In this document: in pieces, positions 7,716-37,287 of the stretch | Layout: each line of letters starts with the position of its first letter | Position numbering within the stretch: the first letter of the stretch is position 1 | From: Escherichia coli | Lineage (GTDB): Bacteria > Pseudomonadota > Gammaproteobacteria > Enterobacterales > Enterobacteriaceae | Reading direction: 5' to 3' (one strand) | Assembly: GCF_050320075.1 (NCBI RefSeq) | Contig: NZ_CP190018.1 | DNA: 64,000 nucleotides | Translations under genes and position numbers: made by a program | The notes under the pieces: model-generated | The model's database searches: none | Seen by the model: the letters and a program-made list of their open reading frames with translations, nothing else | What the model was told of the DNA's origin: nothing

Positions 7716-8843
<1,128 letters not shown>

Positions 8844-9157: not shown

Positions 9158-9221
9158 ACGTCGATTATCGCCGTACTTCGCGGCATACTTTGCTTATTCT
9201 CCTTCGCCTAAAGGAACGTTT

Positions 9222-9590
9222 ATGGATAAGCAATCACTGCACGAAACGGCGAAACGCCTGGCCCTTGAGTTACCCTTTGTCGAGCTTTGCTGGCCTTTTG
9301 GCCCGGAGTTCGATGTTTTTAAAATTGGCGGCAAGATTTTTATGCTGTCGTCGGAGCTGCGCGGCGTCCCCTTTATCAATCTGAAGTCCGATCCACAAAA
9401 ATCCCTGTTAAATCAGCAAATATATCCGAGCATTAAGCCAGGGTATCACATGAATAAAAAGCACTGGATTTCGGTGTATCCCGGAGAGGAAATCTCCGAA
9501 GCGTTACTTCGCGATCTGATCAACGATTCGTGGAATCTGGTGGTTGATGGTCTGGCTAAACGCGATCAAAAAAGAGTGCGTCCAGGCTAA
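9222..9590 (+). CDS. ybdF: Conserved protein YbdF (122 aa)
   Basis: ORF 9102..9590; start placed at internal Met [22 protein letters not shown]... giving 122 aa. Confidence 0.8.
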
Positions 9591-9683
9591 AGCGGGAATC
9601 TATAGCGCATTTTTCTCGCTTACCATTTCTCGTTGAACCTTGTAATCTGCTGGCACGCAAAATTACTTTCACATGGAGTCTTT

Positions 9684-10337
9684 ATGGATATCATTTCTGT
9701 CGCCTTAAAGCGTCATTCCACTAAGGCATTTGATGCCAGCAAAAAACTAACCCCGGAACAGGCCGAGCAGATCAAAACTCTCCTGCAATACAGCCCATCC
9801 AGCACCAACTCCCAGCCGTGGCATTTTATTGTTGCCAGCACGGAAGAAGGTAAAGCGCGTGTTGCCAAATCCGCTGCCGGTAATTACGTGTTCAACGAGC
9901 GTAAAATGCTTGATGCCTCGCACGTTGTGGTGTTCTGTGCAAAAACCGCGATGGACGATGCCTGGCTGAAGCTGGTTGTTGACCAGGAAGATGCCGATGG
10001 CCGCTTTGCCACGCCGGAAGCGAAAGCCGCGAACGATAAAGGTCGCAGGTTCTTCGCCGATATGCACCGTAAAGATCTGCATGATGATGCAGAGTGGATG
10101 GCAAAACAGGTTTATCTCAACGTCGGCAACTTCCTGCTCGGCGTGGCGGCGCTGGGTCTGGACGCGGTACCCATCGAAGGTTTTGACGCCGCAATCCTCG
10201 ATGCAGAATTTGGTCTGAAAGAGAAAGGCTACACCAGTCTGGTGGTTGTTCCGGTGGGTCATCACAGCGTTGAAGATTTTAACGCTACGCTGCCGAAATC
10301 TCGTCTGCCGCAAAACATCACCTTAACCGAAGTGTAA
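9684..10337 (+). CDS. nfsB: Oxygen-insensitive NAD(P)H nitroreductase
   Basis: ORF 9633..10337; start at [17 protein letters not shown]..., 217 aa, nitroreductase fold signature. Confidence 0.9.
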
Positions 10338-10396
10338 TTCTCTCTTGCCGGGCATCTGCCCGGCTATTTCCCCTCAGATTCTCCTGATTTGCATAA

Positions 10397-11692
<1,296 letters not shown>

Positions 11693-11693
11693 T

Positions 11694-11734
11694 TAAAAAA
11701 ACCGCTCTTATCGAATGGATGAGAGCGGTTTCGG
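11694..11734. terminator. Candidate bidirectional rho-independent terminator between convergent ybdG and pheP
   Basis: A-tract (AAAAAAA) + hairpin ACCGCTCTTATC-GAATG-GATGAGAGCGGT + TTT; sits between two convergent genes. Confidence 0.5.
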
Positions 11735-11772
11735 ATGGTTGACATCATTTTGTCGGATACGGCGTGAATGCC

Positions 11773-13149
11773 TTATTTCCGACGCAGCGTTTTAAACGCT
11801 ACAAACAGGAATACAATCCACACTGGCAGCAGAATCGCTGACAAGCGCATATCATCCATCGTGCACATCAGCAGCAAAATCATGCCGAGGAAGGCAATGC
11901 AGAGATAGTTGCCGAACGGATAAAGCAGCGCCTTAAACTGTGTTTCACGTCCCTGACGTCGCATCGCCGCGCGAAAACGCAGATGCGCCAGGCAGATCAT
12001 AATCCAGTTCAACAGCAGCGTTGCTACCACCAGCGCCATCAGCAGACCAAACGCTTTTTGCGGCAGCAGATAGTTGATTAACACCACCAGCGAAGTGATC
12101 GCTCCGGAAAGCATCAGCGAGTTAATCGGCACGCCGCGACGGCTGACGCGAGTCAAAAACTTCGGCGCATTACCCTGCACAGAAAGGCCAAACAGCATGC
12201 GGCTGTTAGAGTAAACCCCGCTGTTATACACCGATAATGATGCTACCAGAATGACGAAGTTCAGCGCAGAAGCTACCACGTTGCTGTCGAGATTATGGAA
12301 AATCATCACAAAAGGGCTACTGTTGGATTTCACTTCCACCCACGGATAGAGTGCCAGTAAAACCACCAGTGAACCGATATAAAACAGCAGGATGCGATAC
12401 ACCACCTGATTCACTGCTTTCGGGATGCTTTTTTCCGGATCGCGCGCTTCTGCCGCAGTAATCCCAATCAGCTCCAGACCGCCGAAGGAGAACATAATTA
12501 CCGCCAGCGACAAAATCAGCCCATTCCAGCCGGTGGCGAAGAAACCACCGTAGCGCCAGAGGTTGTCGATACTGGCTTTTTCGCCGCCGTGCCCAGAAAA
12601 CAGCAGCCACAGGCCAAAGCCGATCATACCGATGATCGCCAGCACTTTAATCAGCGCAAACCAGAATTCGGTTTCGCCATATAAGCGCACGTTTACCAGG
12701 TTAACGGCGTTGATGATAATAAAGAAGGCGGCAGCCCAAATCCACGTTGGAACATCCGGGAACCAGTACTGCATATAGATGCCCGCAGCGGTCAGCTCTG
12801 CCATTCCCACCAGCACGAACATCACCCAGTAGTTCCAGCCAGAGAGGAAGCCCGCAAACGGTCCCCAGTATTTATAGGCAAAGTGGGCAAATGAACCAGA
12901 TACCGGCTCTTCGACCACCATCTCGCCGAGCTGGCGCATAATCAGGAAAGCGATGATCCCGGCGACGCCGTAGCCCAGCAATACAGCCGGACCCGCCATC
13001 TGAATCGCCGGGCCAATGCCAAGAAACAGACCAGTACCAATTGCGCCACCCAGCGCAATCAGTTGAATATGACGGTTATGTAATCCGCGATGAAGCGTCG
13101 GCTCTTGATTCGACGCAGTATCTTCCGATACGGTTGACGCGTTTTTCAC
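11773..13149 (-). CDS. pheP: Phenylalanine-specific permease (APC family)
   Basis: ORF 11773..13185; likely GTG start corresponding to ...KNASTVSEDTASNQEPTLHRGLHNRHIQLIALGGAIGTGLF; 12 TM amino acid transporter. Confidence 0.9.
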   Translation of the reverse strand: MKNASTVSEDTASNQEPTLHRGLHNRHIQLIALGGAIGTGLFLGIGPAIQMAGPAVLLGYGVAGIIAFLIMRQLGEMVVEEPVSGSFAHFAYKYWGPFAGFLSGWNYWVMFVLVGMAELTAAGIYMQYWFPDVPTWIWAAAFFIIINAVNLVNVRLYGETEFWFALIKVLAIIGMIGFGLWLLFSGHGGEKASIDNLWRYGGFFATGWNGLILSLAVIMFSFGGLELIGITAAEARDPEKSIPKAVNQVVYRILLFYIGSLVVLLALYPWVEVKSNSSPFVMIFHNLDSNVVASALNFVILVASLSVYNSGVYSNSRMLFGLSVQGNAPKFLTRVSRRGVPINSLMLSGAITSLVVLINYLLPQKAFGLLMALVVATLLLNWIMICLAHLRFRAAMRRQGRETQFKALLYPFGNYLCIAFLGMILLLMCTMDDMRLSAILLPVWIVFLFVAFKTLRRK

Positions 13150-13250
13150 GCCTTTCCCCTGTGTGTCTTTATTGTTGAGGGGCACCTTTTAACATTTAGT
13201 GCCCATCGTCGCAAGACACAATCCACACGGTTAAACCGGGTATCCTGCTT

Positions 13251-16200
13251 TTATTTCCGTACCCGATGTCGGTGCAGCCACATCAGCTTATATGCCGCCG
13301 GGATAATAAACAGCGATAGCAAAGGCGCGGTGATCATGCCGCCAATCATCGGCGCGGCAATCCGGCTCATCACCTCTGAACCTGCTCCCGTTCCCCACAG
13401 AATCGGCAGCAGACCAGCGATAATCACCGCCACCGTCATCGCTTTCGGGCGCACGCGCAGGACCGCGCCGTGATACAACGCCTCATCCAGCTTCTGCTCG
13501 CTGAATGTTTGCGGATTATTCAACGACGGCTCGGCCTCTATGGCGTGACGTAAATACATCAGCATCACCACGCCAAATTCGGCGGCAACCCCGGCGAGGG
13601 CAATAAAACCGGTGCCCGTCGCCACGGAAAGATGAAAGCCCATCCACCACAGCAACCAGATGCCGCCCACCAGCGCAAACGGTACGCTGCTGATAATCAG
13701 CAACGCTTCGCCCACCCGACGGAACGCCAGATATAACAGCACGAAGATGATCATCAGCGTCATCGGCACCATGAGTTTCAGCTTATGGTTGGCGCGTTCC
13801 AGTAGCTCGAACTGCCCGGAGAATGCCACGCTGGTGCCCGGTTTTAACTGTACTTTTTCAGCTATCGCTTTTTGCAGATCGTGAACCACCGACACCATGT
13901 CACGATCGCGGGCATCGATATAAATCCAGCTCGTCGGGCGCGCATTCTCGGTTTTCAGCATCGACGGTCCGGTAGAGACTTTAACGTCGGCCACGTCTGC
14001 CAGGGTGATTTGCTGCTTCATCGGCGTCAGGATCGGCAACTGGCGCAGCGCCTGCGGACTATCGCGCCAGCTTTGCGGATAACGCAGATTAATTGGATAA
14101 CGGGCAATCCCTTCCACCGTTTCGCCAACCATCGCCCCGCCCACCGCAGAAGTCACAAACAATTGCACATCCGCCACCGTCATACCGTAACGCGCGGCTT
14201 TTTCACGGTTAATCTCAACGTTGATATAGCGCCCACCTTCCAGACGCTCAGCAAGCGCAGAAGCTACGCCTGGCACCGTTCGTGCCACTTCTTCAATTTG
14301 CTCAGCCATCGCGTCGATATCCGCCAGCACAGTACCGGAAACTTTAATGCCGATGGGGCTTTTAATGCCAGTCGAGAGCATATCGATACGGTTACGAATT
14401 GGCGGCACCCACAGATTCGCCAGCCCCGGCAGCCGCACGGTGTTATCCAGTTCCTCGATGATTTTGTCCATCGTCATGCCTGGCCGCCACTGCTCTTGTG
14501 GCTTAAGCTGGATGGTCGTTTCTACCATCTCCAGCGGAGCAGAATCGGTGGCGGTTTCCGCTTTGCCGGTTTTGCCAAATACCCGCGCCACTTCAGGTAC
14601 GCTCATAATCAGCTTGTCGGTTTTTTGCAGCATAATCGCCGCCTCTGCTGCGGAAATCCCCGGCAGCGTCGATGGCATATACAACAAGTCACCTTCATTG
14701 ATCTGCGGTAAAAACTCCCCGCCAACTTTATTGAGCGGCCAGAGAACCGTCAGCACCGAAAGCGCTGCCACCAGCAGCGTGGTTTTCGGCCAGTGCAGTA
14801 CTTTCAGCAACAGCGGATGATAAACACGAATCAAAAAGCGATTGAGCGGGTTACTGCTTTCCGGCGGAATTTTGCCACGGATCCAGTAGCCCATCAGGAT
14901 AGGGATCACTACGATCGCCAGCAGCGCCGCACCCGCCATCGCATACGTTTTGGTGAACGCCAGCGGGCCAAACAGACGCCCTTCCTGCCCTTCCAGGGTG
15001 AAGATCGGGATAAACGACAACGTGATAATCAGCAGACTGATAAACAGCGCCGGCCCCACTTCAACAGATGCATCGGTGATCACCTGCCAGCGCGTTTTAT
15101 TATCCAGCGTGGCGTCAGGATGCTGGTGCTGCCACTCTTCCAGCCGTTTATGCGCATTCTCGATCATGACGATAGCGGCATCGACCATCGCCCCGACGGC
15201 AATAGCAATACCGCCCAGCGACATAATATTGGCGTTCAGTCCCTGAAAGTGCATGACAATAAAAGCAATACACAACCCCAGCGGCAACGAAATAATCGCC
15301 ACCAGCGCCGAGCGCACATGCCAGAGAAACAGCGCACAGACTACCGCCACCACAATAAACTCTTCCAGCAACTTGCCGCTGAGGTTGTCGATGGCGCGGT
15401 CAATGAGCTGGCTGCGATCGTATGTTGTAACTATCTCCACGCCTTCCGGCAGACTACTTTTCAGCGTTTCCAGTTTGTCTTTCACGGCGGCGATCACTTC
15501 TCGGGCGTTTTTGCCGGAGCGCAGGATCACCACCCCGCCCGCCACTTCGCCTTCGCCGTTCAGTTCGGCAATGCCCCGGCGCATTTCCGGGCCAATCTGG
15601 ACCTTCGCAACATCACGCAGATAAACGGGCACGCCATTTTCACTGGCTTTTAAAACGATGTGATTAAAGTCGTCGAGCGTTTGCAGATAGCCGCTGGCTC
15701 GCACCATATATTCCGCTTCCGCCAGTTCGATCGACGAACCGCCCGCTTCCTGGTTTGAAGCATCCAGCGCGCTTTTTACTTCGGCGAGACTGATGCCATA
15801 TTGCGCCAGGCGCTGAGGATCGATAACCACCTGATACTCTTTCACCACACCGCCTACCGACGCCACTTCCGCAACGTCAGGAATGGTTTTCAGCTCATAT
15901 TTGAGAAACCAGTCCTGCAATGAGCGTAAATCGGCCAGATCGTGCTTACCGCTGCGATCCACCAGTGCATATTCATAGATCCAGCCAACACCCGTGGCAT
16001 CTGGCCCCAACTCGGCGCTGACTCCCGCAGGCAGCTTACCCTGTACCTGGTTGAGGTACTCCAGCACCCGCGAGCGCGCCCAGTACGGATCGGTGCCATC
16101 TTCGAAAATGACATACACATAAGAGTCGCCAAACTGCGAAAAACCGCGCACAGTCTTCGCGCCAGGCACCGACAACATGGTGGTGGTTAGCGGATAAGTC

Positions 16201-22397: not shown

Positions 22398-24299
22398 ATG
22401 TCAACCGGATTACGTTTCACACTGGAAGTGGACGGCCTGCCGCCGGATGCTTTTGCGGTGGTTTCCTTTCATCTGAACCAGTCACTCTCTTCGCTCTTTT
22501 CCCTCGATCTCTCCCTGGTCAGCCAGCAGTTTCTCTCCCTTGAATTTGCGCAGGTGCTGGACAAAATGGCCTACCTGACGGTATGGCAGGGCGATGACGT
22601 ACAGCGCCGGGTGAAAGGCGTGGTGACCTGGTTTGAACTCGGGGAGAACGACAAAAACCAGATGCTGTACAGCATGAAGGTGCACCCGCCGCTGTGGCGT
22701 GCCGGTCTGCGCCAGAACTTCCGTATCTTCCAGAACGAGGACATCAAAAGCATCCTCGGCACGATGTTGCAGGAAAACGGGGTGACCGAATGGAGTCCGC
22801 TGTTCAGCGAGCCGCATCCTTCCCGTGAGTTTTGTGTCCAGTACGGTGAGACTGATTACGATTTCCTGTGCCGGATGGCGGCGGAGGAAGGCATCTTCTT
22901 TTATGAGGAGCATGCTTACAAAAGTACCGACCAGAGCCTGGTGCTGTGCGACACAGTCCGCCATCTGCCCGAATCTTTTGAAATCCCATGGAACCCGAAC
23001 ACCCGTACCGAGGTGAGCACCCTCTGCATCAGCCAGTTCCGCTACAGCGCACAAATCCGCCCTTCTTCCGTGGTGACCAAAGACTACACCTTTAAACGCC
23101 CCGGCTGGGCCGGACGTTTTGAACAGGAAGGCCAGCACCAGGACTACCAGCGCACGCAGTATGAAGTGTATGACTACCCCGGACGTTTCAAGGGTGCCCA
23201 CGGGCAGAACTTTGCCCGCTGGCAGATGGACGGCTGGCGAAACAATGCAGAAACCGCGCGGGGAATGAGTCGCTCGCCGGAGATATGGCCGGGACGACGA
23301 ATTGTGCTGACGGGGCATCCGCAGGCGAACCTGAACCGGGAATGGCAGGTGGTGGCAAGTGAACTGCACGGCGAACAGCCACAGGCGGTGCCAGGACGGC
23401 AGGGAGCGGGGACGGCGCTGGAGAACCATTTTGCGGTGATCCCGGCAGACAGAACATGGCGACCACAGCCGTTGCTGAAACCGCTGGTCGACGGCCCGCA
23501 GAGCGCTGTCGTGACAGGACCGGCAGGCGAGGAAATCTTCTGCGACGAACATGGTCGCGTGCGGGTGAAGTTCAACTGGGACCGCTATAACCCGTCAAAC
23601 CAGGACAGTTCGTGCTGGATCCGTGTGGCACAGGCGTGGGCAGGCACCGGTTTTGGCCACCTGGCGATACCGCGTGTGGGTCAGGAGGTGATTGTAGACT
23701 TCCTCAACGGCGATCCGGACCAGCCGATCATTATGGGGCGCACCTACCACCAGGAAAACCGCACCCCCGGCAGCCTGCCGGGAACAAAGACGCAGATGAC
23801 CATCCGCTCCAAAACGTACATGGGCAGCGGATTTAATGAGCTGAAGTTTGATGATGCGACAGGGAGAGAACAGGTCTACATCCACGCGCAGAAGAACATG
23901 GATACCGAAGTGCTCAACGACCGTACCACCACCGTAAAACACGATCACCACGAAACCGTAAAAAATGACCAGACGGTCACGATCCAGGAAGGTAACCGCC
24001 TTCTTACGGTGGAAAAAGGCCACAAGATCACCGGAGTACTGAAAGGGTCTTTATCTGAGGATGTCTTTCAGGACAGAGGCACGATTGCCGGTTCGGTGCA
24101 TGTTGACGCTGTAAACAATGGTGGCGAAGGCGACGGTATACAGGCTTATACGGCGATTAAGGAAATTTTGCTGGCCGTGGAGGAAAGCAAAATTGCGCTG
24201 ACGCCGGATGGCATTCAGCTACAGGTCGGGGAATCGACGGTAATCAGGCTGTCGAAGGATGGCATCACCATCGTGGGCGGTTCTGTTTTCATCAACTGA
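22398..24299 (+). CDS. vgrG: Type VI secretion spike protein VgrG (gp27/gp5-like)
   Basis: 633-aa ORF MSTGLRFTLEVDGLPPDAFAVVSFHLNQSLSSLFSLDLSLVSQ... typical VgrG N-terminus; GGAGG RBS 7 nt upstream. Confidence 0.9.
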   Translation: MSTGLRFTLEVDGLPPDAFAVVSFHLNQSLSSLFSLDLSLVSQQFLSLEFAQVLDKMAYLTVWQGDDVQRRVKGVVTWFELGENDKNQMLYSMKVHPPLWRAGLRQNFRIFQNEDIKSILGTMLQENGVTEWSPLFSEPHPSREFCVQYGETDYDFLCRMAAEEGIFFYEEHAYKSTDQSLVLCDTVRHLPESFEIPWNPNTRTEVSTLCISQFRYSAQIRPSSVVTKDYTFKRPGWAGRFEQEGQHQDYQRTQYEVYDYPGRFKGAHGQNFARWQMDGWRNNAETARGMSRSPEIWPGRRIVLTGHPQANLNREWQVVASELHGEQPQAVPGRQGAGTALENHFAVIPADRTWRPQPLLKPLVDGPQSAVVTGPAGEEIFCDEHGRVRVKFNWDRYNPSNQDSSCWIRVAQAWAGTGFGHLAIPRVGQEVIVDFLNGDPDQPIIMGRTYHQENRTPGSLPGTKTQMTIRSKTYMGSGFNELKFDDATGREQVYIHAQKNMDTEVLNDRTTTVKHDHHETVKNDQTVTIQEGNRLLTVEKGHKITGVLKGSLSEDVFQDRGTIAGSVHVDAVNNGGEGDGIQAYTAIKEILLAVEESKIALTPDGIQLQVGESTVIRLSKDGITIVGGSVFIN

Positions 24300-24326: not shown

Positions 24327-24788
24327 ATGCAGTTCACTTTTAATGAAGGCCACATTCAACTGCCGTCTCAATGGCAGGATCAGTCAATGCAGGTCCTGGT
24401 GTCCACAGATAACAGTGGCATCAACCTGGTCATTACCCGCGAAGCCGTTCCACAGGGAACCCTGACACCAGAGCTGTACCAGGAAACGCTGGCGCTGTAC
24501 CAGGGCAAACTTGATGGGTACACCGAACATGCCTGCCGGGAAATCACTCTGGCAGAGGCCCCGGCCTGGCTGCTGGATTATTCCTGGAACGGTCCGGAAG
24601 ATGAGGGGAATCAGGGGCGGATTAGCCAGATAGCCGTATTCCAGCGGCGTGGAGATACGCTGCTGACCTTCACTTTCAGCACCTCCTTATCCCTGAAGAA
24701 CAGTCAAAAGACGATGCTGCTGGAGGTGATAAAGAGCTTCACCCCGTTGCCACCGGAGAATGACATCCAAAAGGACCAGCCGCGCTGA
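24327..24788 (+). CDS. DUF1795-family (Eag-type) effector-associated chaperone
   Basis: 153-aa ORF immediately between vgrG and a prePAAR-Rhs gene; size and position match Eag chaperones; family assignment from memory of the sequence class, not from a search. Confidence 0.65.
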   Translation: MQFTFNEGHIQLPSQWQDQSMQVLVSTDNSGINLVITREAVPQGTLTPELYQETLALYQGKLDGYTEHACREITLAEAPAWLLDYSWNGPEDEGNQGRISQIAVFQRRGDTLLTFTFSTSLSLKNSQKTMLLEVIKSFTPLPPENDIQKDQPR

Positions 24789-24807: not shown

Positions 24808-27800
24808 ATGAGTGAAGGACCAGGCGGGCCACAGGGAGCGACCGCAGGCGGTACGCTGGCAATGCGAATGCTGTCACAGCAGGCGATGGTCGCCAGCCAG
24901 ATGAAACGGGCAGCCAACGACAAAGCCATTGCACAGATGCTGGCATCAAAAAAGTCCGGCCCCCCCGCCGCCAGGCTGGGCGATGAAATTCAGCACAAGA
25001 GTTTTTTGGGGGCGCTGGCAGGGGCCGTGCTGGGGGCGATAGTGACCATCGCAGAAGGTTGCCTGATTATGGCCGCCTGTGCCACCGGCCCTTATGCGCT
25101 GGTTCTGGTGCCTGCGCTGATGTATGCCAGCTATAAGGCGAGTGATTATGTGGAGGAGAAACAGAACCAGCTTGAATCATGGATAAACAGCTTTTGTGAC
25201 ACGGACGGCGCCATCAATACCGGTTCTGAAAATGTAAACATTAACGGAAAGCCCGCTGCCAGGGCCGCCGTCACCCTTCCCCCTCCTCCCCCACCTGGAG
25301 CAATACCTGAAATCCCACAGGGGGAACCCTCATGGGGTGATATTGCCACTGACCTGCTTGAATCGGCAGCGGAAAAAGCAGTACCACTGGCGAAGGCCTG
25401 GGGGAACGCTGTTATCACCCTGACGGACAGCAATGCCGGTTTTATGGATCGCGTCAGCGCCGGCGCATCGCTTCTGTTTCCCGCCGGTCCGGTATTAATG
25501 GAGTTTGCCACCATGGTGGGCGGGCGTGGCGAAATCAAAAAAGATGTGGATTTCCCGGAAGCCGGTGAGGACACGGCGCTCTGCGACAAGGAGAACAAAC
25601 CACCGAGGATAGCCCAGGGCAGCAGCAACGTCTTTATCAACAATCAGCCCGCCGCGCGCAAGGGCGACAAACTGGAGTGCAGCGCGGCAATCGTGGAAGG
25701 TTCGCCGGACGTCTTTATTGGCGGTGAACAGGTGACCTATCTGGATATCCAGCCAGAGTTCCCGCCGTGGCAGAGAATGATCCTGGGGGGAATAACGATA
25801 GCCAGCTATCTTCTGCCGCCAGCGGGACTGCTGGGAAAACTGAAGAATCTGGCGAGACTCGGCAAACTGGGGAACCTGCTGGGGAAAAGCGGGAAGCTGC
25901 TGGGGGCAAAGCTCGGCGCGTTGCTGGGAAAAACAGGTAAGTCGTTAAAAAGTATTGCCAATAAAGTCATCAGATGGGTAACAGATCCTGTCGATCCGGT
26001 AACCGGCGCGTACTGCGACGAACGTACCGACTTTACGCTGGGCCAGACCCTCCCCCTCTCCTTCACCCGTTTCCACAGTTCTGTACTGCCGCTGCATGGC
26101 CTGACCGGCGTGGGCTGGAGCGACTCCTGGAGCGAATACGCCTGGGTGCGTGAACAGGGAAACCGGGTGGATATCATCAGCCAGGGAGCCACGCTGAACT
26201 TCGCCTTCGACGGTGACAGTGATACGGCGGTTAACCCGTATCACGCCCAGTACATTCTGCGCCGCCGCGATGATTATCTGGAGCTGTTCGACAGGGATGC
26301 ACTGAGCAGCCGCTTCTTTTATGACGCCTTTCCGGGAATGCGTCTGCGCCACCCGGTGACTGACGATACCAGCGATGACCGCCTGGCACACAGCCCCAAT
26401 GACCGGATGTACATGCTGGGCGGGATGAGCGACACCGCCAGCAACCGCATCACGTTTGAGCGCGACAGCCAGTACCGGATCACAGGTGTCAGTCACACCG
26501 ACGGGATCCGGCTTAAACTGACGTACCACGCCAGCGGCTACCTGAAAGCCATTCACCGCACGGATAACGGCATACAGACGCTGGCGACCTACGAACAGGA
26601 TGCGCGGGGGCGGCTGACAGAAGCGGATGCGCGGCTGGACTACCACCTGTTTTATGAGTACGACGCTGCGGACCGGATCATCCGCTGGTCCGATAACGAC
26701 CAGACGTGGAGCCGTTTCACCTACGATGAACAGGGCCGGTGCGTGAATGTCACCGGGGCGGAGGGCTATTACAACGCCACGCTGGACTATGGTGACGGCT
26801 GCACCACCGTGACGGACGGCAAGGGCATTCACCGTTATTACTATGATCCTGACGGCAATATTCTGCGGGAAGCAGCGCCGGACGGCAGCACCACCATGTA
26901 TGAATGGGATGAATTCCATCACCTGCTGGCCCGTCACTCCCCTGCCGGGCGGGTGGAGAAATTTGAATACAACGCCGCACACGGTCAGTTAAGCCGTTAC
27001 ACGGCGGCAGACGGCGCGGAGTGGCAGTACCGCTATGATGAGCGCGGCCTGCTCAGCAACATCACCGACCCTGCCGGGCAGACGTGGACACAGCAGTGTG
27101 ATGAACGCGGCCTGCCGGTAAGTCTGGTGTCGCCACAGGGCGAAGAGACCCGGCTGGCATACACCGCTCAGGGGCTGCTGTCGGGAATATTCCGCCAGGA
27201 TGAACGGCGTCTGGGCATAGAGTACGACCACCACAACCGGCCGGAAACACTCACCGACGTGATGGGCCGCGAACACCACACCGAATACAGTGGTCACGAC
27301 CTGCCGGTGAAGATGCGCGGCCCCGGCGGTCAGTCAGTGAGGTTGCAGTGGCAGCAGCACCATAAACTGAGCGGCCTTGAGCGCACTGGCACCGGCGCGG
27401 AAGGATTCCGCTACGACCGTCACGGCAACCTGCTGGCGTACACGGACGGTAACGGTGTTGTCTGGACAATGGAGTACGGCCCGTTTGATTTGCCGGTGGC
27501 GCGAACGGACGGTGAAGGCCACCGCTGGCAGTACCGCTACGATAAAGACACGCTGCAACTGACAGAAGTCATCAACCCGCAGGGTGAGTCATATCTTTAT
27601 GTTCTGGATAACTGCGGCCGGGTGACGGAAGAGCGTGACTGGGGCGGCGTGGTCTGGCGTTACCGTTATGATGCCGATGGCCTGTGTACCGCCAGGGTTA
27701 ACGGTCTGGAGGAAACCATCCTCTACAGCCGGGACGCCGCAGGCCGCCTGGCAGAAGTCATCACGCCGGAAGGCAAAACGCAGTATGCGTATGACAAATC

Positions 27801-29640
27801 CGGCAGGCTGACGGGTATCTTCAGCCCGGACGGCACATCACAGCGCACCGGCTATGACGAACGCGGGCGGGTGAATGTCACCACTCAGGGCCGACGGGCC
27901 ATTGAATACCACTACCCCGATGAACACACCGTCATCCGCTGTATCCTGCCACCGGAAGATGAACGCGACAGACACCCCGGTGAATCCCTGCTGAAAACCA
28001 CGTACCGCTACAACGCAGCCGGAGAACTGGCAGAGGTCATCCTGCCGGAGGATGAGACGCTGACGTTCAGCCGTGATGAGGCAGGACGTGAAGTGCTCCG
28101 GCACAGTAACCGGGGTTTTGCCTGTGAGCAGGGCTGGAATGCAGCCGGTCAGCTTACCAGCCAGCGCGCCGGACTTTTCCCGGCGGAAGCCACATGGGGC
28201 GGACTGCTCCCCTCACTGGTGCGGGAGTACCGTTACGACAGCGCGGGCAATGTGTCGGCTGTCACCAGCCGGGAAGATTACGGACGGGAAACTCGCCGGG
28301 AGTACCGGCTGGACCGGAACGGCCAGGTCACGGCGGTGACAGCCTCAGGCACCGGGCTGGGCTATGGCGAAGGCGATGAGTCCTATGGCTATGACAGCTG
28401 CGGCTACCTGAAGGCGCAGTCTGCGGGCTGGCACCGGATAAGTGAAGAGACTGACCAGTATGCCGGAGGCCACCGGCTGAAACAGGCCGGAAACACGCAG
28501 TATGACTATGACGCCGCAGGCCGGATGGTCAGCCGCATAAAACACCGTGACGGCTACCGCCCGGAAACAGAGCGGTTCCGGTGGGACAGCCGTGACCAGC
28601 TGACCGGGTATTGCAGCGCACAGGGTGAACAGTGGGAATACCGCCACGACGCCAGCGGCAGACGGACGGAAAAACGCTGCGACCGGAAGAAAATCCGCAT
28701 CACGTACCTGTGGGACGGCGACAGTATTGCGGAAATCCGGGAATACCGCGATGATAAACTGTACAGCGTACGGCACCTGGTGTTTAACGGCTTTGAGCTG
28801 ATAAGCCAGCAGTGCAGCCGGGTACGGCAGCCGCATCCGTCCGTGGCCCCGCAGTGGGTGACGCGGACGAATCATGCGGTGAGCGACCTGACGGGCCGTC
28901 CGCTGATGCTCTTTAACAGTGAAGGTAAAACCGTCTGGCGACCGGGGCAGACCAGCCTGTGGGGGCTGGCACTCAGCCTGCCCGCAGACACCGGCTACCC
29001 GGACCCGCGCGGGGAACTGGACGCGGAAGCCGACCCCGGCCTGCTGTATGCAGGACAGTGGCAGGATGCGGAATCCGGGCTGTGCTATAACCGGTTCCGG
29101 TATTACGAGCCGGAAACAGGGATGTACCTGGTGAGTGATCCGCTGGGGTTGCTGGGGGGTGAGCAGACTTACCGGTATGTGCCGAATCCGTGTGGGTATG
29201 TTGATCCGCTGGGATTAGCATTTTGCCCCAGAATGCAGAAGACATTGCAAAAATTAACTGACAAGGCTGTTGCTGATATTATCGCTAACCCCAGACTCGC
29301 TGAAGATCTGATGTCGGCGGGGAGCTATGCACATTTAAAAAATGGAACTAATTTATATGCAGCCAGTTTTGGTAAGGCTGTTGAACGTAGGGTTGCACAG
29401 TTAGTTAGTGACAATTCCCGATTAAGCAAACTTGTTGAACATACTGGTCAGGCCAAGGGGGCTAATGGACAGTTTATATCGAGCCCTGACTTCACCACTA
29501 AAGGTAAAGGCGTGTTCGACGTTACAACAAATAAAGCACTCCAAGCGCATATAGACAGATATACTAAAGCTGGTGTGTATACTCCCTATAATGATATTGG
29601 TTACTTGGTATATGATGTCGTATATGGATTATCTTTCTAA
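24808..29640 (+). CDS. rhs: prePAAR/PAAR-domain Rhs polymorphic toxin (T6SS effector) with C-terminal toxin domain
   Basis: 1610-aa ORF; N-terminal AARLGDEIQH (prePAAR AARxxDxxxH), hydrophobic TM segments, PAAR-like segments (NINGKPAAR, FINNQPAARKGD), long YD-repeat region, Rhs core ending PCGYVDPLGL (PxxxxDPxGL) at 29188-29217, followed by ~141-aa low-GC C-terminal domain. Confidence 0.9.
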   Translation: MSEGPGGPQGATAGGTLAMRMLSQQAMVASQMKRAANDKAIAQMLASKKSGPPAARLGDEIQHKSFLGALAGAVLGAIVTIAEGCLIMAACATGPYALVLVPALMYASYKASDYVEEKQNQLESWINSFCDTDGAINTGSENVNINGKPAARAAVTLPPPPPPGAIPEIPQGEPSWGDIATDLLESAAEKAVPLAKAWGNAVITLTDSNAGFMDRVSAGASLLFPAGPVLMEFATMVGGRGEIKKDVDFPEAGEDTALCDKENKPPRIAQGSSNVFINNQPAARKGDKLECSAAIVEGSPDVFIGGEQVTYLDIQPEFPPWQRMILGGITIASYLLPPAGLLGKLKNLARLGKLGNLLGKSGKLLGAKLGALLGKTGKSLKSIANKVIRWVTDPVDPVTGAYCDERTDFTLGQTLPLSFTRFHSSVLPLHGLTGVGWSDSWSEYAWVREQGNRVDIISQGATLNFAFDGDSDTAVNPYHAQYILRRRDDYLELFDRDALSSRFFYDAFPGMRLRHPVTDDTSDDRLAHSPNDRMYMLGGMSDTASNRITFERDSQYRITGVSHTDGIRLKLTYHASGYLKAIHRTDNGIQTLATYEQDARGRLTEADARLDYHLFYEYDAADRIIRWSDNDQTWSRFTYDEQGRCVNVTGAEGYYNATLDYGDGCTTVTDGKGIHRYYYDPDGNILREAAPDGSTTMYEWDEFHHLLARHSPAGRVEKFEYNAAHGQLSRYTAADGAEWQYRYDERGLLSNITDPAGQTWTQQCDERGLPVSLVSPQGEETRLAYTAQGLLSGIFRQDERRLGIEYDHHNRPETLTDVMGREHHTEYSGHDLPVKMRGPGGQSVRLQWQQHHKLSGLERTGTGAEGFRYDRHGNLLAYTDGNGVVWTMEYGPFDLPVARTDGEGHRWQYRYDKDTLQLTEVINPQGESYLYVLDNCGRVTEERDWGGVVWRYRYDADGLCTARVNGLEETILYSRDAAGRLAEVITPEGKTQYAYDKSGRLTGIFSPDGTSQRTGYDERGRVNVTTQGRRAIEYHYPDEHTVIRCILPPEDERDRHPGESLLKTTYRYNAAGELAEVILPEDETLTFSRDEAGREVLRHSNRGFACEQGWNAAGQLTSQRAGLFPAEATWGGLLPSLVREYRYDSAGNVSAVTSREDYGRETRREYRLDRNGQVTAVTASGTGLGYGEGDESYGYDSCGYLKAQSAGWHRISEETDQYAGGHRLKQAGNTQYDYDAAGRMVSRIKHRDGYRPETERFRWDSRDQLTGYCSAQGEQWEYRHDASGRRTEKRCDRKKIRITYLWDGDSIAEIREYRDDKLYSVRHLVFNGFELISQQCSRVRQPHPSVAPQWVTRTNHAVSDLTGRPLMLFNSEGKTVWRPGQTSLWGLALSLPADTGYPDPRGELDAEADPGLLYAGQWQDAESGLCYNRFRYYEPETGMYLVSDPLGLLGGEQTYRYVPNPCGYVDPLGLAFCPRMQKTLQKLTDKAVADIIANPRLAEDLMSAGSYAHLKNGTNLYAASFGKAVERRVAQLVSDNSRLSKLVEHTGQAKGANGQFISSPDFTTKGKGVFDVTTNKALQAHIDRYTKAGVYTPYNDIGYLVYDVVYGLSF
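27186..29217 (+). repeat. Direct repeat copy 1 (3' part of Rhs core, ~2.03 kb)
   Basis: Near-identical to 30384..32412 (visible by eye: ATTCCGCCAGGATGAACGGCGTCTGGGCATAGAGTACGACCACCAC... through ...GATCCGCTGGGATT). Confidence 0.9.
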
Positions 29641-29662
29641 AGCAAACTAATGGTAACTAAAT

Positions 29663-30373
29663 ATGACAAAAGTTCTTGAGAATGAAGAGTTCAATTCTAT
29701 ACATATAGACGAAGGTGGGGTTTTTAATAGTTTACGCTTTGAAAAATGTCTTTTTCAAAGCTGTAGCATACTTAGCAGAAAACTAAATGATAATAGTGAT
29801 TTACCTCCTCGCTTTGAAAACATTCTCATTAAAGATTGCACTGCTCTTAATTGTGTAAGTGGCCCAGCTTTTTTAAAAGATGTAACTGTTGAGAATTTTA
29901 GGACCGGTGATATTTTTCTTATTTATTCCACTATGTTTCATCATGTAACATTAAAAGGAAAGCTTGGGGCAATAAAAATAAATAAAAAAGATTATGTGCG
30001 TGACTATGATAGCCATCAAAGACATATTGAGATGATGAGAACGAGATTTTATTCTCAGATAGATTGGGCGATGGATATATCACAGGCGAAGTTTTTAAGT
30101 TTCTCCTGCAAAGGTATCCCAGCAAAATTAATTAGACGAGATAGTGAGACTCAATTTGTTGTAACGAGGAAACGTTTCAACTCTATGGATGTACTAAATG
30201 CAGAATTTAAAGGACAATACCCGTTTGTTTATTTACTGCTGGAGCTCTTTTTAGAATCAGATGAAGATGACCAGGTATTAGTTACACCATTAGGCAAAGC
30301 AAAAAAATATTATCAGCCAATTCTCGAAGGATTTAGAGAGTTAAGACGAGCAGGAATACTCGAACCTAACTAA
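29663..30373 (+). CDS. Putative cognate immunity protein of the Rhs C-terminal toxin
   Basis: 236-aa ORF starting 22 nt after the rhs stop, AT-rich codon usage unlike the Rhs core; position is the canonical immunity slot. No recognisable family. Confidence 0.6.
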   Translation: MTKVLENEEFNSIHIDEGGVFNSLRFEKCLFQSCSILSRKLNDNSDLPPRFENILIKDCTALNCVSGPAFLKDVTVENFRTGDIFLIYSTMFHHVTLKGKLGAIKINKKDYVRDYDSHQRHIEMMRTRFYSQIDWAMDISQAKFLSFSCKGIPAKLIRRDSETQFVVTRKRFNSMDVLNAEFKGQYPFVYLLLELFLESDEDDQVLVTPLGKAKKYYQPILEGFRELRRAGILEPN

Positions 30374-30383
30374 ATAAGGGTTA

Positions 30384-32412
30384 TATTCCGCCAGGATGAA
30401 CGGCGTCTGGGCATAGAGTACGACCACCACAACCGGCCGGAAACACTCACCGACGTGATGGGCCGCGAACACCACACCGAATACAGTGGTCACGACCTGC
30501 CGGTGAAGATGCGCGGCCCCGGCGGTCAGTCAGTGCGCTTACAGTGGCAGCAGCACCATAAACTGAGTGGCCTTGAGCGCACTGGCACCGGCGCGGAAGG
30601 ATTCCGCTACGACCGCCACGGCAACCTGCTGGCCTGGACGGACGGTAACGGTGTTGTCTGGACAATGGAATACGGCCCGTTTGATTTGCCGGTGGCGCGA
30701 ACGGACGGTGAAGGCCACCGCTGGCAGTACCGCTACGATAAAGACACGCTGCAACTGACAGAAGTCATTAACCCGCAGGGTGAGTCATATCTTTATGTTC
30801 TGGATAACTGCGGCCGGGTGACGGAAGAGCATGACTGGGGCGGCGTGGTCTGGCGTTACCGCTATGACGCCGATGGCCTGTGTACCGCCAGGGTCAACGG
30901 CCTGGAGGAAACCATCCTCTACAGCCGGGACGCCGCAGGCCGCCTGGCAGAAGTCATCACGCCGGAAGGCAAAACGCAGTATGCCTATGACAAATCCGGC
31001 AGGCTGACGGGTATCTTCAGCCCGGACGGCACATCACAGCGCACCGGCTATGACGAACGCGGGCGGGTGAATGTCACCACTCAGGGCCGACGGGCCATTG
31101 AATACCACTACCCCGACGAACACACCGTCATCCGCTGTATCCTGCCACCGGAAGATGAACGCGACAGACACCCCGGTGAATCCCTGCTGAAAACCACGTA
31201 CCGCTACAACGCCGCCGGAGAACTGACGGAGGTCATTCTGCCGGGGGATGAGACGCTGACGTTCAGCCGTGATGAGGCAGGACGTGAAGTGCTCCGGCAC
31301 AGTAACCGGGGTTTTGCCTGTGAACAGGGCTGGAATGCAGCCGGTCAGCCTGTCAGTCAGCGCGCCGGACTTTTCCCGGCAGAAGCCACATGGGGCGGGC
31401 TGCTCCCCTCACGGGTACGGGAGTACCGTTACGACAGCGCGGGTAATGTGTCAGGCGTCACCAGCCGGGAAGATTACGGACGGGAAACACGGCGGGAATA
31501 CCGGCTGGACCGGAACGGCCAGGTCACGGCGGTGACAGCCTCAGGCACCGGGCTGGGCTATGGCGAAGGCGATGAGTCCTATGGCTATGACAGCTGCGGC
31601 TACCTGAAGGCGCAGTCTGCGGGCTGGCACCGGATAAGTGAAGAGACTGACCAGTATGCCGGAGGCCACCGGCTGAAACAGGCCGGAAACACGCAGTATG
31701 ACTATGACGCCGCAGGCCGGATGGTCAGCCGCATAAAACACCGTGACGGCTACCGCCCGGAAACAGAGCGGTTCCGGTGGGACAGCCGTGACCAGCTGAC
31801 CGGGTATTGCAGCGCACAGGGTGAACAGTGGGAATACCGCCACGACGCCAGCGGCAGACGGACGGAAAAACGCTGCGACCGGAAGAAAATCCGCATCACG
31901 TACCTGTGGGACGGCGAAGTATTGCGGAAATCCGGGAATACCGCGATGATAAACTGTACAGCGTACGGCACCTGGTGTTTAACGGCTTTGAGCTGATAAG
32001 CCAGCAGTTCAGCCGGGTACGGCAGGCGCATCCGTCGGTGGCCCCGCAGTGGGTGACACGGACGAATCATGCGGTGAGCGACCTGACGGGCCGTCCGCTG
32101 ATGCTCTTTAACAGTGAAGGTAAAACCGTCTGGCGACCGGGACAGACCAGCCTGTGGGGGCTGGCACTCAGCCTGCCCGCAGACACCGGCTACCCGGACC
32201 CGCGCGGGGAACTGGACCCGGAAGCCGACCCCGGCCTGCTGTATGCAGGACAGTGGCAGGATGCAGAATCCGGGCTGTGCTATAACCGGTTCCGGTATTA
32301 CGAGCCGGAAACCGGGATGTACCTGGTGAGTGATCCGCTGGGGTTGCTGGGGGGTGAGCAGACTTACCGGTATGTGCCAAATCCGTGTGGGTGGGTTGAT
32401 CCGCTGGGATTG
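30384..32412 (+). repeat. Direct repeat copy 2 (orphan Rhs core fragment)
   Basis: See copy 1 at 27186..29217. Confidence 0.9.
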
Positions 32413-32865
32413 GCTGCAAGTTCTAAAATCAGCAGTTTGATGGACTATATTGGCGATGGTCGTCGTGTTAGTGGGCATACGGGTTTCCTGGATGGGGTTC
32501 GTTTATCACGTAGTCAAATAAACAATATTGCTAAAGAAATGGAGAAGCTAGGAATTAAAGTAATAAGGAAAGCAGATAAATATTTGCCACCAAATGCTAG
32601 GGCAGCTTTTGATTATGGCCTTCGCAATATTTATCTTAGGAAAAATGCTACCTTATATGAGGTGTATCATGAAGTGATTCATGCTAAGCAATTTGCGAAA
32701 ATTGGACGAGAAGCATACGAAGCACTAGGACGTTTATCTAGGGAGGAACACGTTCTAAATGAAATATTAAAAAGTAAAAATTTATTCAATGAGGCGGAAA
32801 TAGCTCATGCCATAAAATATGTTGAGGGATTGAGAGAAAAATTCATGATGGGACTAATAAATTGA
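30384..32865 (+). pseudogene. Orphan Rhs core-fragment + alternative C-terminal toxin domain, frameshifted
   Basis: Repeats the 3' 2 kb of the rhs core; 1-bp deletion near 31917 (GGCGAAGTATTGCGG vs GGCGACAGTATTGCGG in the main copy) splits it into ORFs 30455..31996 and 31828..32865; ends DPLGL (32398-32412) + divergent ~150-aa CT containing HEVIH. Confidence 0.8.
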
Positions 32866-33113
32866 TAAAACATAACAAAATAACTATCGAAATGGCTCTT
32901 GACTTGGCTCGGCGTGAGTTAGAGTTAAGGGAAATTCCTTATATTAAAAATAGTCTACATGCCAATTACAGCTATAAATCTATTAGTATTGGTTCTAAGC
33001 AAGGTTGGTTAATTTCAGCGAAATTAAAAGTCCCTGAAACTTTTGAGCCTGATATGATATTTATTGAGATATCTGACCCAGAAGGTTTTATTAATATTCC
33101 TGATGTATTATAA
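32862..33113 (+). CDS. Putative immunity protein for the orphan Rhs-CT
   Basis: 83-aa low-GC ORF overlapping the orphan CT stop; start codon uncertain (TTG in ORF track). Confidence 0.45.
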   Translation: MIKHNKITIEMALDLARRELELREIPYIKNSLHANYSYKSISIGSKQGWLISAKLKVPETFEPDMIFIEISDPEGFINIPDVL

Positions 33114-33309
33114 ACTACGTTAGAGGTTTTGTTATAAGGTAATCGGTTTCTTTACAGACCGCTGGCGTACATCGCACAGAGGCTGCTAACAGGGATATTC
33201 CTGCCTGGATGAACGCAAGGCAAGATCATGGAAATAGTGATATACATCACTATTTCCATCCTGATTTTAGCTATCGCATTAATAAAACAGCGGATGTTAG
33301 CCAATATCG

Positions 33310-33500
33310 AAACCAGTAACCCGTATCACGCCCAGTACATCCTGCGCCGCCGCGATGATTACCTGGTGCTGTTCGACCGTGATGCCCTGAGCTGCCGCTT
33401 CTTTTATGACGCCTTTCCGGGAATGCGTCTGCGCCACCAGGTGACCGGCGATACCGACGATGACCGCCTGGCACACAGCCCCGCAGACCGGATGTATACA
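33310..33500 (+). pseudogene. Vestigial Rhs core fragment
   Basis: NPYHAQYILRRRDDYLVLFDRDALSCRFFYDAFPGMRLRH... matches main rhs at ~26228..26420; embedded in ORF 33228..33539 with unrelated flanks. Confidence 0.7.
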
Positions 33501-33579
33501 GGGAAAGATCATCAGAAGTACACTTTTTGTACTAAATAATTCACATTTTATGTTTAAAAATTGAGATATTCCTCATTAC

Positions 33580-34800
33580 CTGAAGCTGTTTTTTATTGCT
33601 TATACATGATCAAATACTCCTTACATAATTAAGGAGAACAAAATGGAACTTAAAAAATTGATGGAACATATTTCTATTATTCCCGATTACAGACAAGCCT
33701 GGAAAGTGGAACATAAATTATCGGATATTCTATTGTTGACTATTTGTGCCGTTATTTCTGGTGCGGAAGATTGGGAAGATATAGAGGATTTTGGGGAAAC
33801 ACATCTCGATTTTTTGAAGCAATATGGTGATTTTGAAAATGGTATTCCTGTTCACGATACCATTGCCAGAGTTGTATCCTGTATCAGTCCTGCAAAATTT
33901 CACGAGTGCTTTATTAACTGGATGCGTGACTGCCATTCTTCAGATGATAAAGACGTCATTGCAATTGATGGAAAAACGCTCCGGCACTCTTATGACAAGA
34001 GTCGCCGCAGGGGAGCGATTCATGTCATTAGTGCGTTCTCAACAATGCACAGTCTGGTCATCGGACAGATCAGGACGGATGAGAAATCCAATGAGATTAC
34101 AGCTATCCCAGAACTTCTTAACATGCTGGATATTAAAGGAAAAATCATCACAACTGATGCGATGGGTTGCCAGAAAGATATTGCAGAGAAGATACAAAAA
34201 CAGGGAGGTGATTATTTATTCGCGGTAAAAGGAAACCAGGGGCGGCTAAATAAAGCCTTCGAGGAAAAATTTCCGCTGAAAGAATTAAATAATCCAGAGC
34301 ATGACAGTTACGCAATGAGTGAAAAGAGTCACGGCAGAGAAGAAATCCGTCTTCACATTGTTTGCGATGTCCCTGATGAACTTATTGATTTCACGTTTGA
34401 ATGGAAAGGTCTGAAGAAATTATGCGTGGCAGTCTCCTTTCGGTCAATAATAGCAGAACAAAAGAAAGAGCCAGAAATGACGGTCAGATATTATATTAGT
34501 TCTGCTGATTTAACCGCAGAGAAGTTCGCCACAGCAATCCGAAACCACTGGCACGTGGAGAATAAGCTGCACTGGCGTCTGGACGTGGTAATGAATGAAG
34601 ACGACTGCAAAATAAGAAGAGGAAATGCAGCAGAATTATTTTCAGGGATACGGCACATCGCTATTAATATTTTGACGAATGATAAGGTATTCAAGGCAGG
34701 GTTAAGACGTAAGATGCGAAAAGCAGCCATGGACAGAAACTATCTGGCGTCAGTCCTTGCGGGGAGCGGGCTTTCGTAATCTTGCCCTGCCTGCTCACCT
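33580..34800 (+). mobile_element. H-rpt / ISAs1-family insertion sequence (approximate bounds)
   Basis: Transposase CDS 33643..34779; terminal inverted repeats not delimited by me. Confidence 0.5.
33643..34779 (+). CDS. H-repeat-associated protein / ISAs1-family transposase (H-rpt)
   Basis: 378-aa [63 protein letters not shown]... recognised as the H-rpt (YhhI/YdcC-like) transposase that accompanies Rhs elements. Confidence 0.85.
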
Positions 34801-35049: not shown

Positions 35050-37287
35050 GTGGACTGGCTTCTTGATGTTTTTGCTACCTGGCTCTACGGCTTAAAAGTA
35101 ATCGCGATAACGTTAGCGGTCATCATGTTCATCAGCGGGCTGGACGATTTTTTTATTGATGTCGTCTACTGGGTACGCCGCATTAAACGCAAGTTGAGTG
35201 TTTATCGCCGCTACCCGCGAATGAGTTACCGCGAACTGTATAAACCAGATGAAAAACCGTTAGCGATTATGGTTCCGGCGTGGAATGAAACGGGCGTCAT
35301 CGGCAATATGGCCGAGCTGGCGGCGACCACGCTCGACTATGAAAACTATCATATCTTTGTTGGCACCTACCCCAACGACCCCGATACTCAGCGTGATGTT
35401 GACGAAGTGTGCGCTCGCTTCCCGAATGTGCATAAGGTAGTCTGCGCGCGACCTGGCCCCACCAGCAAAGCCGACTGCCTGAACAACGTGCTGGACGCCA
35501 TCACCCAGTTTGAGCGTAGCGCCAATTTCGCTTTTGCTGGTTTTATTCTGCATGACGCCGAAGATGTGATTTCACCGATGGAATTGCGTCTGTTCAACTA
35601 TCTGGTCGAGCGTAAAGATCTGATTCAGATCCCGGTGTATCCGTTCGAACGCGAATGGACGCACTTCACCAGCATGACTTACATTGATGAGTTTTCAGAA
35701 CTGCATGGCAAAGATGTTCCGGTGCGTGAAGCCCTCGCCGGACAAGTGCCCAGCGCAGGCGTCGGTACCTGTTTCAGCCGCCGCGCCGTGACCGCACTGT
35801 TAGCTGACGGTGACGGTATTGCTTTCGACGTGCAGAGTCTTACTGAAGATTACGACATTGGCTTCCGCCTGAAAGAAAAAGGTATGACGGAAATTTTTGT
35901 CCGTTTTCCGGTGGTGGACGAAGCCAAAGAACGCGAGCAGCGTAAATTTTTACAGCACGCGCGGACGTCAAACATGATCTGCGTGCGCGAATATTTCCCC
36001 GATACCTTTTCGACTGCGGTTCGACAAAAATCTCGCTGGATCATCGGCATTGTTTTCCAGGGCTTTAAAACCCACAAATGGACCTCCAGTCTGACGCTGA
36101 ACTACTTTCTCTGGCGCGACCGCAAAGGGGCAATCAGTAACTTTGTCAGCTTCCTCGCGATGCTGGTGATGATCCAGCTTTTGCTGTTGCTGGCGTATGA
36201 AAGTTTGTGGCCCGATGCCTGGCATTTCCTTTCTATTTTCAGCGGCAGCGCATGGTTAATGACTCTGCTGTAGCTAAACTTTGGCTTGATGATTAACCGC
36301 ATCGTGCAGCGGGTGATTTTCGTTACTGGCTACTACGGCCTGACGCAGGGGCTGCTATCTGTCCTGCGTCTTTTCTGGGGCAACCTGATTAACTTCATGG
36401 CCAACTGGCGCGCGTTAAAACAGGTACTTCAACACGGCGATCCACGTCGTGTCGCGTGGGATAAAACAACGCATGACTTCCCCAGCGTGACTGGCGATAC
36501 CCGCTCGTTGCGTCCGTTAGGTCAAATCCTGCTGGAAAATCAGGTCATCACTGAAGAACAACTCGATACAGCACTGCGTAATCGCGTCGAAGGTCTACGC
36601 CTGGGCGGTTCAATGCTGATGCAGGGGCTGATTAGCGCCGAACAGCTGGCACAGGCGCTGGCAGAGCAAAACGGCGTGGCGTGGGAGTCGATCGACGCCT
36701 GGCAGATCCCTTCATCACTGATTGCCGAAATGCCGGCTTCCGTGGCGCTGCATTATGCAGTACTGCCGCTGCGTCTGGAAAATGATGAGTTAATTGTCGG
36801 CAGTGAAGATGGTATTGACCCGGTTTCGCTGGCGGCCCTGACGCGTAAAGTCGGACGCAAAGTGCGTTACGTCATTGTTCTGCGGGGACAAATTGTCACG
36901 GGGTTACGCCACTGGTATGCGCGCCGACGCGGTCACGATCCGCGGGCAATGTTGTACAATGCGGTTCAGCATCAGTGGCTCACGGAACAGCAGGCCGGTG
37001 AAATCTGGCGGCAATATGTGCCGCATCAGTTCCTGTTCGCCGAAATACTGACCACGCTCGGTCATATTAATCGTTCAGCAATTAACGTGTTGTTATTGCG
37101 CCATGAACGCAGTTCTCTGCCGCTCGGCAAGTTTTTGGTCACCGAAGGCGTTATCAGCCAGGAAACGTTGGATCGCGTCCTGACAATTCAACGCGAATTA
37201 CAAGTTTCGATGCAATCACTATTACTCAAAGCAGGTTTAAACACAGAACAGGTTGCGCAACTGGAGTCCGAAAATGAAGGAGAATAA
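35050..37287 (+). pseudogene. nfrB: Phage N4 adsorption protein B (family-2 glycosyltransferase), interrupted by in-frame amber codon
   Basis: ORFs 35050..36273 (407 aa) and 36286..37287 (333 aa) are in the same frame, separated only by TAG at 36271-36273; 407+1+337 = 745 codons, the full NfrB length as I recall it. Confidence 0.8.

Follow-up and report, generated by a model that had tools for sequence, protein, structure and literature searches.

What is the second, broken rhs segment that lies directly behind a full-length rhs gene in the Escherichia coli contig NZ_CP190018.1 (assembly GCF_050320075.1), and does the toxin that it appears to encode, or the small gene that follows it, still have a role? 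We address this question in a 64,000-nucleotide stretch of that contig (the window), and conclude that the region is very probably a displaced orphan rhs toxin/immunity cassette in a vgrG-eag-rhs island between cusS and nfrB (Table 1). Orphan Rhs-CT1/Tox-MPTase4 cassettes are ordinary elements, of a kind that has already been annotated and published; the Tox-MPTase4 family was defined in 2012 (Zhang et al., PMC3482391), the finding is already recorded in the public RefSeq annotation, and it has little significance beyond correct annotation. The cassette does illustrate how E. coli, on acquiring a new type VI secretion system (T6SS) toxin tip, stacks the old ones and retains their immunity genes. 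Retention of such a gene is plausibly useful, given that the toxin is found in about one of every five complete E. coli genomes.

An orphan rhs core with its own tip and immunity gene

Comparison of the orphan with the main rhs gene by BLASTN gives a single alignment, 30383-32411 against 27187-29216, at 97.6% identity, which bears out a preliminary description of the sequence in which the segment was taken for an orphan rhs C-terminal fragment. The fragment starts 10 nt past the stop codon of the upstream immunity gene, and that stop shares the orphan frame. Window positions 19700-45200 are 100% identical to E. coli YZLc1-3 (NZ_CP123240.1, chicken faeces), and the RefSeq annotation used here is that of this identical genome; it describes the orphan as 'incomplete; missing N-terminus; frameshifted'. 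The preliminary description had the frame split into two open reading frames (ORFs), and both are listed exactly so: an rhs-core ORF at 30455..31996, and an overlapping second ORF of 345 amino acids (aa) at 31828..32865. The C-terminal part of the second ORF reads ...DPLGLAASSKISS...YEVYHEVIHAKQFAKIGREAYEAL...MMGLIN and also holds HEVIHAKQFAKIGREAYEAL. Its first 30 codons are an out-of-frame read of the rhs core, and its GTG start is therefore biologically meaningless.

The region has the features of an orphan rhs-CT/rhsI module: a 5'-truncated rhs fragment that is homologous to the full-length rhs upstream and has no start codon or PAAR domain, a distinct tip past the PxxxxDPxGL motif, and a small immunity gene that belongs to this tip. 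The GC content, ∼62% in the rhs core, drops to ∼33-36% across the tip and small ORF. In other strains the same tip is the main toxin. Strain 746 and the O104:H4 strain C227-11 both carry it at the end of an intact 1620-aa PAAR-Rhs at the same cusS-nfrB locus; over tip and immunity DNA strain 746 is identical to the window, and C227-11 differs by 2 nt that change one residue of the tip and leave the immunity protein identical.

Of 5426 complete E. coli genomes, 1163 contain the 701-bp tip and immunity sequence, 1153 of them at an identity of at least 99%, and the exact orphan junction of the window occurs in 159 genomes. Strain 144 carries the cassette as an orphan with an intact frame, behind the main tip that the window also has; O157:H7 carries it as an orphan too, there behind another main tip. 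This pattern is that of classical displacement at rhs loci. The ancestral state would have been a full-length prePAAR-PAAR-Rhs ending in the Tox-MPTase4 tip and followed by the small immunity gene; a new tip and immunity pair (29217-30373) would then have recombined into the main gene, and the old tip, together with ∼2 kb of rhs core, would have been pushed downstream as a fragment without start codon or PAAR domain.

The tip is a predicted Tox-MPTase4 metallopeptidase

Searched against Pfam, the 150-aa tip matches Tox-MPTase4 (PF15640) over model positions 1-132 of 132 (E 8.9e-34, score 116.7) and no other Pfam family. The motif HEVIH, which the preliminary description had noted past DPLGL as a possible mark of a zinc-metallopeptidase-type toxin, lies at 32668-32682, and the family signature F[DN], [RK], HExxH published by Zhang et al. 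2012 (PMC3482391) is present as F66-D67, R76-K77 and H86-E-V-I-H90. A word-indexed protein search with the tip gave mostly fragments; an exhaustive search of representatives returned 316 representative clusters at E≤0.001 and supplied diverse homologues, of which 38, at 30-63% identity to the tip, were aligned for conservation. F66, E87, H90, G98, Y102, E111 and V114 are invariant in these 38, and H86, R110, E129 and Y136 nearly so. Beyond the published signature there is a conserved Arg-Glu 21 residues past the second His, and its Glu, E111 (32743-32745), would occupy the position of the third metal ligand in gluzincins.

An AlphaFold model of the tip, built on the homologue alignment, has a pLDDT of 90.6 and a pTM of 0.82, and consists of a helix, three strands and a long helix that starts just ahead of HExxH. 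Its best structural matches are ArdC (6sna), Spartan/SprT (6mdx) and the minigluzincins projannalysin, proabylysin and selecase (4jix, 4jiu, 4qhf); weaker ones include M32 carboxypeptidases, MATCAP and anthrax lethal factor. The modelled fold is zincin-like, alpha plus beta, with the motif on the helix that corresponds to that of zincins, and the predicted tip shares its core of strand sheet and HExxH helix with these small zincins of solved structure. Among PDB sequences the tip had no match above chance level, and thus no solved member of the family was found by sequence; scans against NCBIfam and PADLOC found no family. Profile and model together support the tip as a predicted zincin-type metallopeptidase toxin domain, much as the preliminary description had suspected. 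Five-residue motifs can arise by chance, and HEVIH might be such a motif in a tip that is not a metallopeptidase; we regard this as very improbable and rejected it on the full-length Pfam match and the conservation of the motif residues and downstream Glu in distant homologues, with the resemblance of the predicted fold to zincins and the placing of the motif on the matching helix also against it.

At the family level we see no difference between the tip and Tox-MPTase4 (Zhang, de Souza, Anantharaman, Iyer, Aravind 2012, PMC3482391), with which it shares profile, signature, C-terminal position after RHS repeats and link to T6SS. It follows PNPCGWVDPLGL of the rhs core, and full-length PAAR-Rhs carriers of such a tip are found in strain 746, in C227-11 and on a metagenome contig (locus L004).

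The immunity gene and its start codon

The preliminary description placed a low-GC ORF of 83 aa at 32862-33113, overlapping the toxin stop, and it is listed exactly so, with its TTG (32862-32864) overlapping the toxin TGA (32863-32865). The same description named it the likely immunity gene. The literature treats the gene as cognate, and it stands directly 3' of Tox-MPTase4 tips in diverged alleles; a preprint (bioRxiv 10.1101/2024.03.05.583533) gives the C227-11 gene and STEC004 cti1 as characterised cognate immunity genes. The table of Zhang et al. 2012 (PMC3482391) lists no immunity family for Tox-MPTase4. The immunity protein has no match in Pfam, even at E≤10, and none in NCBIfam or PADLOC, and its AlphaFold model (pLDDT 53.5, from an 8-sequence alignment) is too poor for a fold search.

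The start codon had been called uncertain, and there are three competing candidates: TTG 32862 (83 aa), ATG 32892 (73 aa) and TTG 32904 (69 aa). RefSeq uses the last of these (WP_001299578.1), and does so in all six RefSeq genomes examined, while the 73-aa model is given by other gene callers. In the full-length PAAR-Rhs-MPTase4 of locus L004, whose tip is 63% identical to the orphan tip, the tip is followed by an 83-aa immunity homologue (66% identical) with its TTG overlapping the toxin TGA in the same AAATTGA context, and locus L007 has the same arrangement of toxin stop and immunity TTG. A homologue without a toxin at locus L003 has Ile instead of Met at the start position of the 73-aa model, and its tandem paralogue starts with an ATG where the long form has its second codon. 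The N-terminal extension, MI(K/E)(H/Y)xKI, is conserved at the protein level. Homologue comparison thus favours the 83-aa TTG start of the preliminary description over the 69-aa RefSeq model, a minor refinement.

We put forward only tentatively, as a proposal that may well fail, the fuller statement that the immunity gene is the 83-aa form, that the RefSeq model is 14 codons short, and that translation of the immunity protein is coupled to ribosomes finishing the toxin frame. If it were true, an orphan without a start codon would need some internal initiation in the toxin frame to make immunity protein, and orphan cassettes would be linked to the toxin-antitoxin-like internal expression described in Salmonella.

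The surroundings of the L003 homologues may be recorded separately. At 6500-15300 this metagenome contig (ERZ27238671 k111_6418) has ∼17 small ORFs on the same strand, almost none with a Pfam family; among them are the two tandem, diverged 83-aa MPTase4-immunity homologues, and no toxin gene was called nearby. The array looks like an orphan multi-immunity island.

The one-base deletion

The break in the orphan frame is a single missing base: the main copy reads GACGGCGACAGT and the orphan GACGGCGA-AGT, a C being absent between 31917 and 31918, just where the preliminary description had one base missing relative to the main copy. Two further alignment gaps, ∼470 nt upstream of the deletion, offset each other. 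With the C restored, the orphan reads through as a single frame of 825 aa that no other stop interrupts. We searched E. coli genomes with a probe of 60 nt centred on the deletion, which matched 2258 of them. Among the matches listed the source genome stands alone at 100% identity, and the other listed matches carry the extra base; the deletion allele is possible in at most 2 of the 2258 genomes, and the second record in the band of at least 99% is presumably the single partial-coverage match. Six genomes (H2-H7) that are 99.9% identical over 1.5 kb give alignments of 1502 as against 1501 bases, consistent with the extra base. Since the allele is confined to the source genome among the matches listed, the deletion either arose very recently as a private mutation or is an error of sequencing. 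It is in any case of little consequence, because the orphan is already without a start codon and a delivery (PAAR) domain. The core shared 3' of the deletion measures 494 bp; it contains 12 mismatches, and its longest identical run is 91 bp. An intact Rhs-MPTase4 that can be delivered would still result from a crossover between the main and orphan cores within this stretch.

An error of sequencing or assembly, the true orphan frame being continuous as in every other genome, is in our view a rather unlikely cause of the frameshift, though well worth keeping in mind. The near absence of the allele from the probe matches and the alignment lengths in H2-H7 speak for it, as does the presence of the C in the main copy of the same genome; against it, the missing C sits in GACAG, with no homopolymer, whereas long-read errors concentrate in homopolymers, a silent gene fragment may freely collect such mutations, and another disrupted gene, nfrB with an internal stop, lies nearby in the same genome. 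Displacement of the cassette is compatible with an error of this kind. We give practically no credence to a programmed ribosomal frameshift site that regulates toxin production, for which the existence of two overlapping ORFs is the sole point in favour. The allele is in no other listed genome with the segment and in no other orphan or main copy examined, the site is within a fragment without a translation start, and no slippery heptamer was seen on reading the sequence at GGCGAAGTA; programmed frameshifting was rejected on the lack of conservation of the site among homologues.

The break would be irrelevant if the tip and immunity gene were expressed from an internal promoter and an internal start near PxxxxDPxGL, as a module resembling a type II toxin-antitoxin system inside the producer, since the deletion then lies ∼460 nt upstream. 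In S. Typhimurium, rhs-CT and rhsI of main and orphan genes alike are expressed from transcription start sites that lie 89 nt upstream of the sequence coding for PxxxxDPxGL, and a CTG-initiated product is toxic there; the TTGA in which toxin stop and immunity start overlap is conserved, and is consistent with translational coupling to ribosomes in the toxin frame. Set against these points, a simple sigma-70 scan of 31700-33600 found no plus-strand promoter-like site, the sites found being no more than expected by chance. Promoter and terminator sites in a scan of 31700-33700 were likewise no more frequent than chance, a result that neither supports nor excludes internal expression. We judge internal expression of the window cassette to be unlikely; it adds to the explanation by displacement and does not replace it.

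Breaks in rhs genes were seen at this locus in other genomes too. The main rhs gene itself is marked as a pseudogene with an internal stop in WP4-S17-ESBL-08 (L002 8305-13167) and as one with a frameshift in strain 144 (L006 1530-6361). Either disrupted rhs genes are common at the locus, or long repetitive rhs genes draw assembly errors.

Proposed action of the toxin and immunity protein

In an active copy, release at DPLGL would free the tip from the Rhs shell, and the T6SS would carry it into a neighbouring cell, where it may cleave a cytoplasmic protein as a zinc endopeptidase; the 83-aa immunity protein would presumably bind the toxin and block it. We infer a cytoplasmic site of action because the immunity protein is without a signal peptide, its N-terminus MIKHNKITIEMALDLARRELELRE being charged and without a hydrophobic signal segment, and because the carrier is a prePAAR/transmembrane-type Rhs. 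One point weighs against this site: it fits uneasily with the "membrane and wall" wording of the preprint (bioRxiv 10.1101/2024.03.05.583533). In the strain of the window the orphan toxin is probably not deployed. What probably still functions is the immunity gene, by which the cell would be shielded from the toxin found in 21% of E. coli.

Relationship to known systems

Among the closest known systems is the Rhs-CT1/CTI1 pair of E. coli STEC004, with which the window cassette shares both the Tox-MPTase4 domain and the type of locus (vgrG, Eag-type chaperone, PAAR-Rhs and small immunity gene). According to reviews, Rhs-CT1 (MPTase4) of E. coli and its immunity protein CTI1 were put to the test in 2017 (Ma et al. 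2017, Environ Microbiol 19:345, PMID 27871130), and the toxin is described there as antibacterial and T6SS-dependent, with killing that CTI1 blocks. The comparison with the STEC004 pair goes by way of C227-11, where the tip is one residue off and the immunity protein identical, and whose copy the preprint (bioRxiv 10.1101/2024.03.05.583533) groups with STEC004 AOM81335/cti1 at ∼98%. The window tip differs in being unattached to a full-length Rhs, and is not expected to be delivered because it belongs to a truncated, frameshifted orphan behind another toxin.

In its organization the window orphan resembles the orphan rhs-CT/rhsI modules of S. Typhimurium LT2 (Poole et al. 2011, PMC3150448; Koskiniemi et al. 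2014, PMC3967940), which also are without initiation and export signals, have their own tip and immunity gene, and retain the homology that allows reactivating recombination. Koskiniemi et al. (PMC3967940) showed the absence of initiation and export signals in such silent orphans and their reactivation by recombination with the main gene. The window toxin, however, is of a different family, and because of its frameshift an intact fusion would arise only from a crossover within the final 494 bp of the shared core. Another parallel is the Shiga toxin-producing E. coli O22:H8 strain 154 (bioRxiv 10.1101/2024.03.05.583533), in which a truncated Rhs-MPTase4 with its immunity gene lies downstream of Rhs-MafB19 and Rhs-AHH in a vgrG/EagR island; the upstream main toxins differ from that of the window, and the preprint reports no frameshift in that strain.

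VgrG2b-type M91 effectors (P. aeruginosa; Salmonella SARI_02727) are likewise antibacterial T6SS effectors with an HExxH zinc peptidase, and are neutralised by the product of a neighbouring immunity gene, although they are of a different peptidase family and act in the periplasm; for the Salmonella M91 effectors, the papers describe immunity proteins, or candidates for them, with a signal peptide or transmembrane segment. Membership of this type was considered for the window tip and rejected, the sole Pfam match being Tox-MPTase4 and the immunity N-terminus being charged, not hydrophobic.

Other features of the island

Table 1. Coordinates of the orphan cassette and of the neighbouring island genes in the window.
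Position	Strand	Feature	Basis
30383..32412	+	Orphan rhs core fragment, 5'-truncated, without PAAR domain or start codon	BLASTN; RefSeq note
31917..31918	+	Site of 1-nt deletion (missing C) that breaks the orphan frame	BLASTN, copy comparison
32377..32412	+	PNPCGWVDPLGL, PxxxxDPxGL motif, end of Rhs core and boundary with toxin tip	Translation; main-copy homology stops at 32411
32413..32865	+	Tox-MPTase4 toxin domain (predicted), 150 aa plus stop	Pfam; conservation; AlphaFold
32862..33113	+	Cognate immunity gene, 83-aa model	ORF list, RefSeq, homologues, literature
22398..24299	+	vgrG, T6SS spike gene heading the island	RefSeq annotation of identical genome; ORF list
24327..24788	+	DcrB/DUF1795-type (Eag-like) chaperone gene	RefSeq 'DcrB-related protein'; homologous gene of L004 carries PF08786
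24808..29640	+	Main prePAAR-PAAR-Rhs effector gene, 1610 aa, with a different, uncharacterised C-terminal tip (29217-29640)	Pfam
29663..30373	+	236-aa low-GC ORF, presumed immunity gene of the main toxin	Position directly 3' of main toxin; GC ∼33%
33317..33496	+	N-terminal rhs core remnant, 180 bp, 91.7% identical to main 26232-26411	RefSeq: partial pseudogene
33643..34779	+	ISEc1 (ISAs1-family, 'H-repeat') transposase gene, closing the rhs island ahead of nfrB	ORF list; RefSeq

The gene order in RefSeq is cusS, vgrG, a DcrB-related (Eag-type) chaperone, the 1610-aa RHS core protein, a 236-aa hypothetical protein, the orphan rhs, a 69-aa hypothetical protein, a partial pseudogene, the ISEc1 transposase and nfrB. 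The first 700 aa of the main Rhs match prePAAR_I, PAAR_motif, DUF6531 and RHS_repeat in Pfam, and the product is a standard T6SS prePAAR-Rhs effector. Its tip, the toxin presently deployed, extends ∼140 aa past DPLGL (AFCPRMQKTLQKL...VYDVVYGLSF) and gave no match in Pfam, NCBIfam or PDB sequence searches; the 236-aa ORF behind it matched no family in NCBIfam. Homologues of this tip fall into three clusters only, one of which is an RHS protein of Pasteurella testudinis (55% identity). The pair formed by this uncharacterised tip and the 236-aa ORF is arguably more interesting than the orphan.

The rhs core remnant lies between the immunity gene and the ISEc1 element, is also present in other strains examined, and is probably a scar left by an earlier rearrangement. 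Beyond ISEc1, nfrB (phage N4 adsorption/cyclic di-GMP-activated glycosyltransferase; 35050-37287) has an internal stop at 36271-36273, and is intact at the same locus in other strains.

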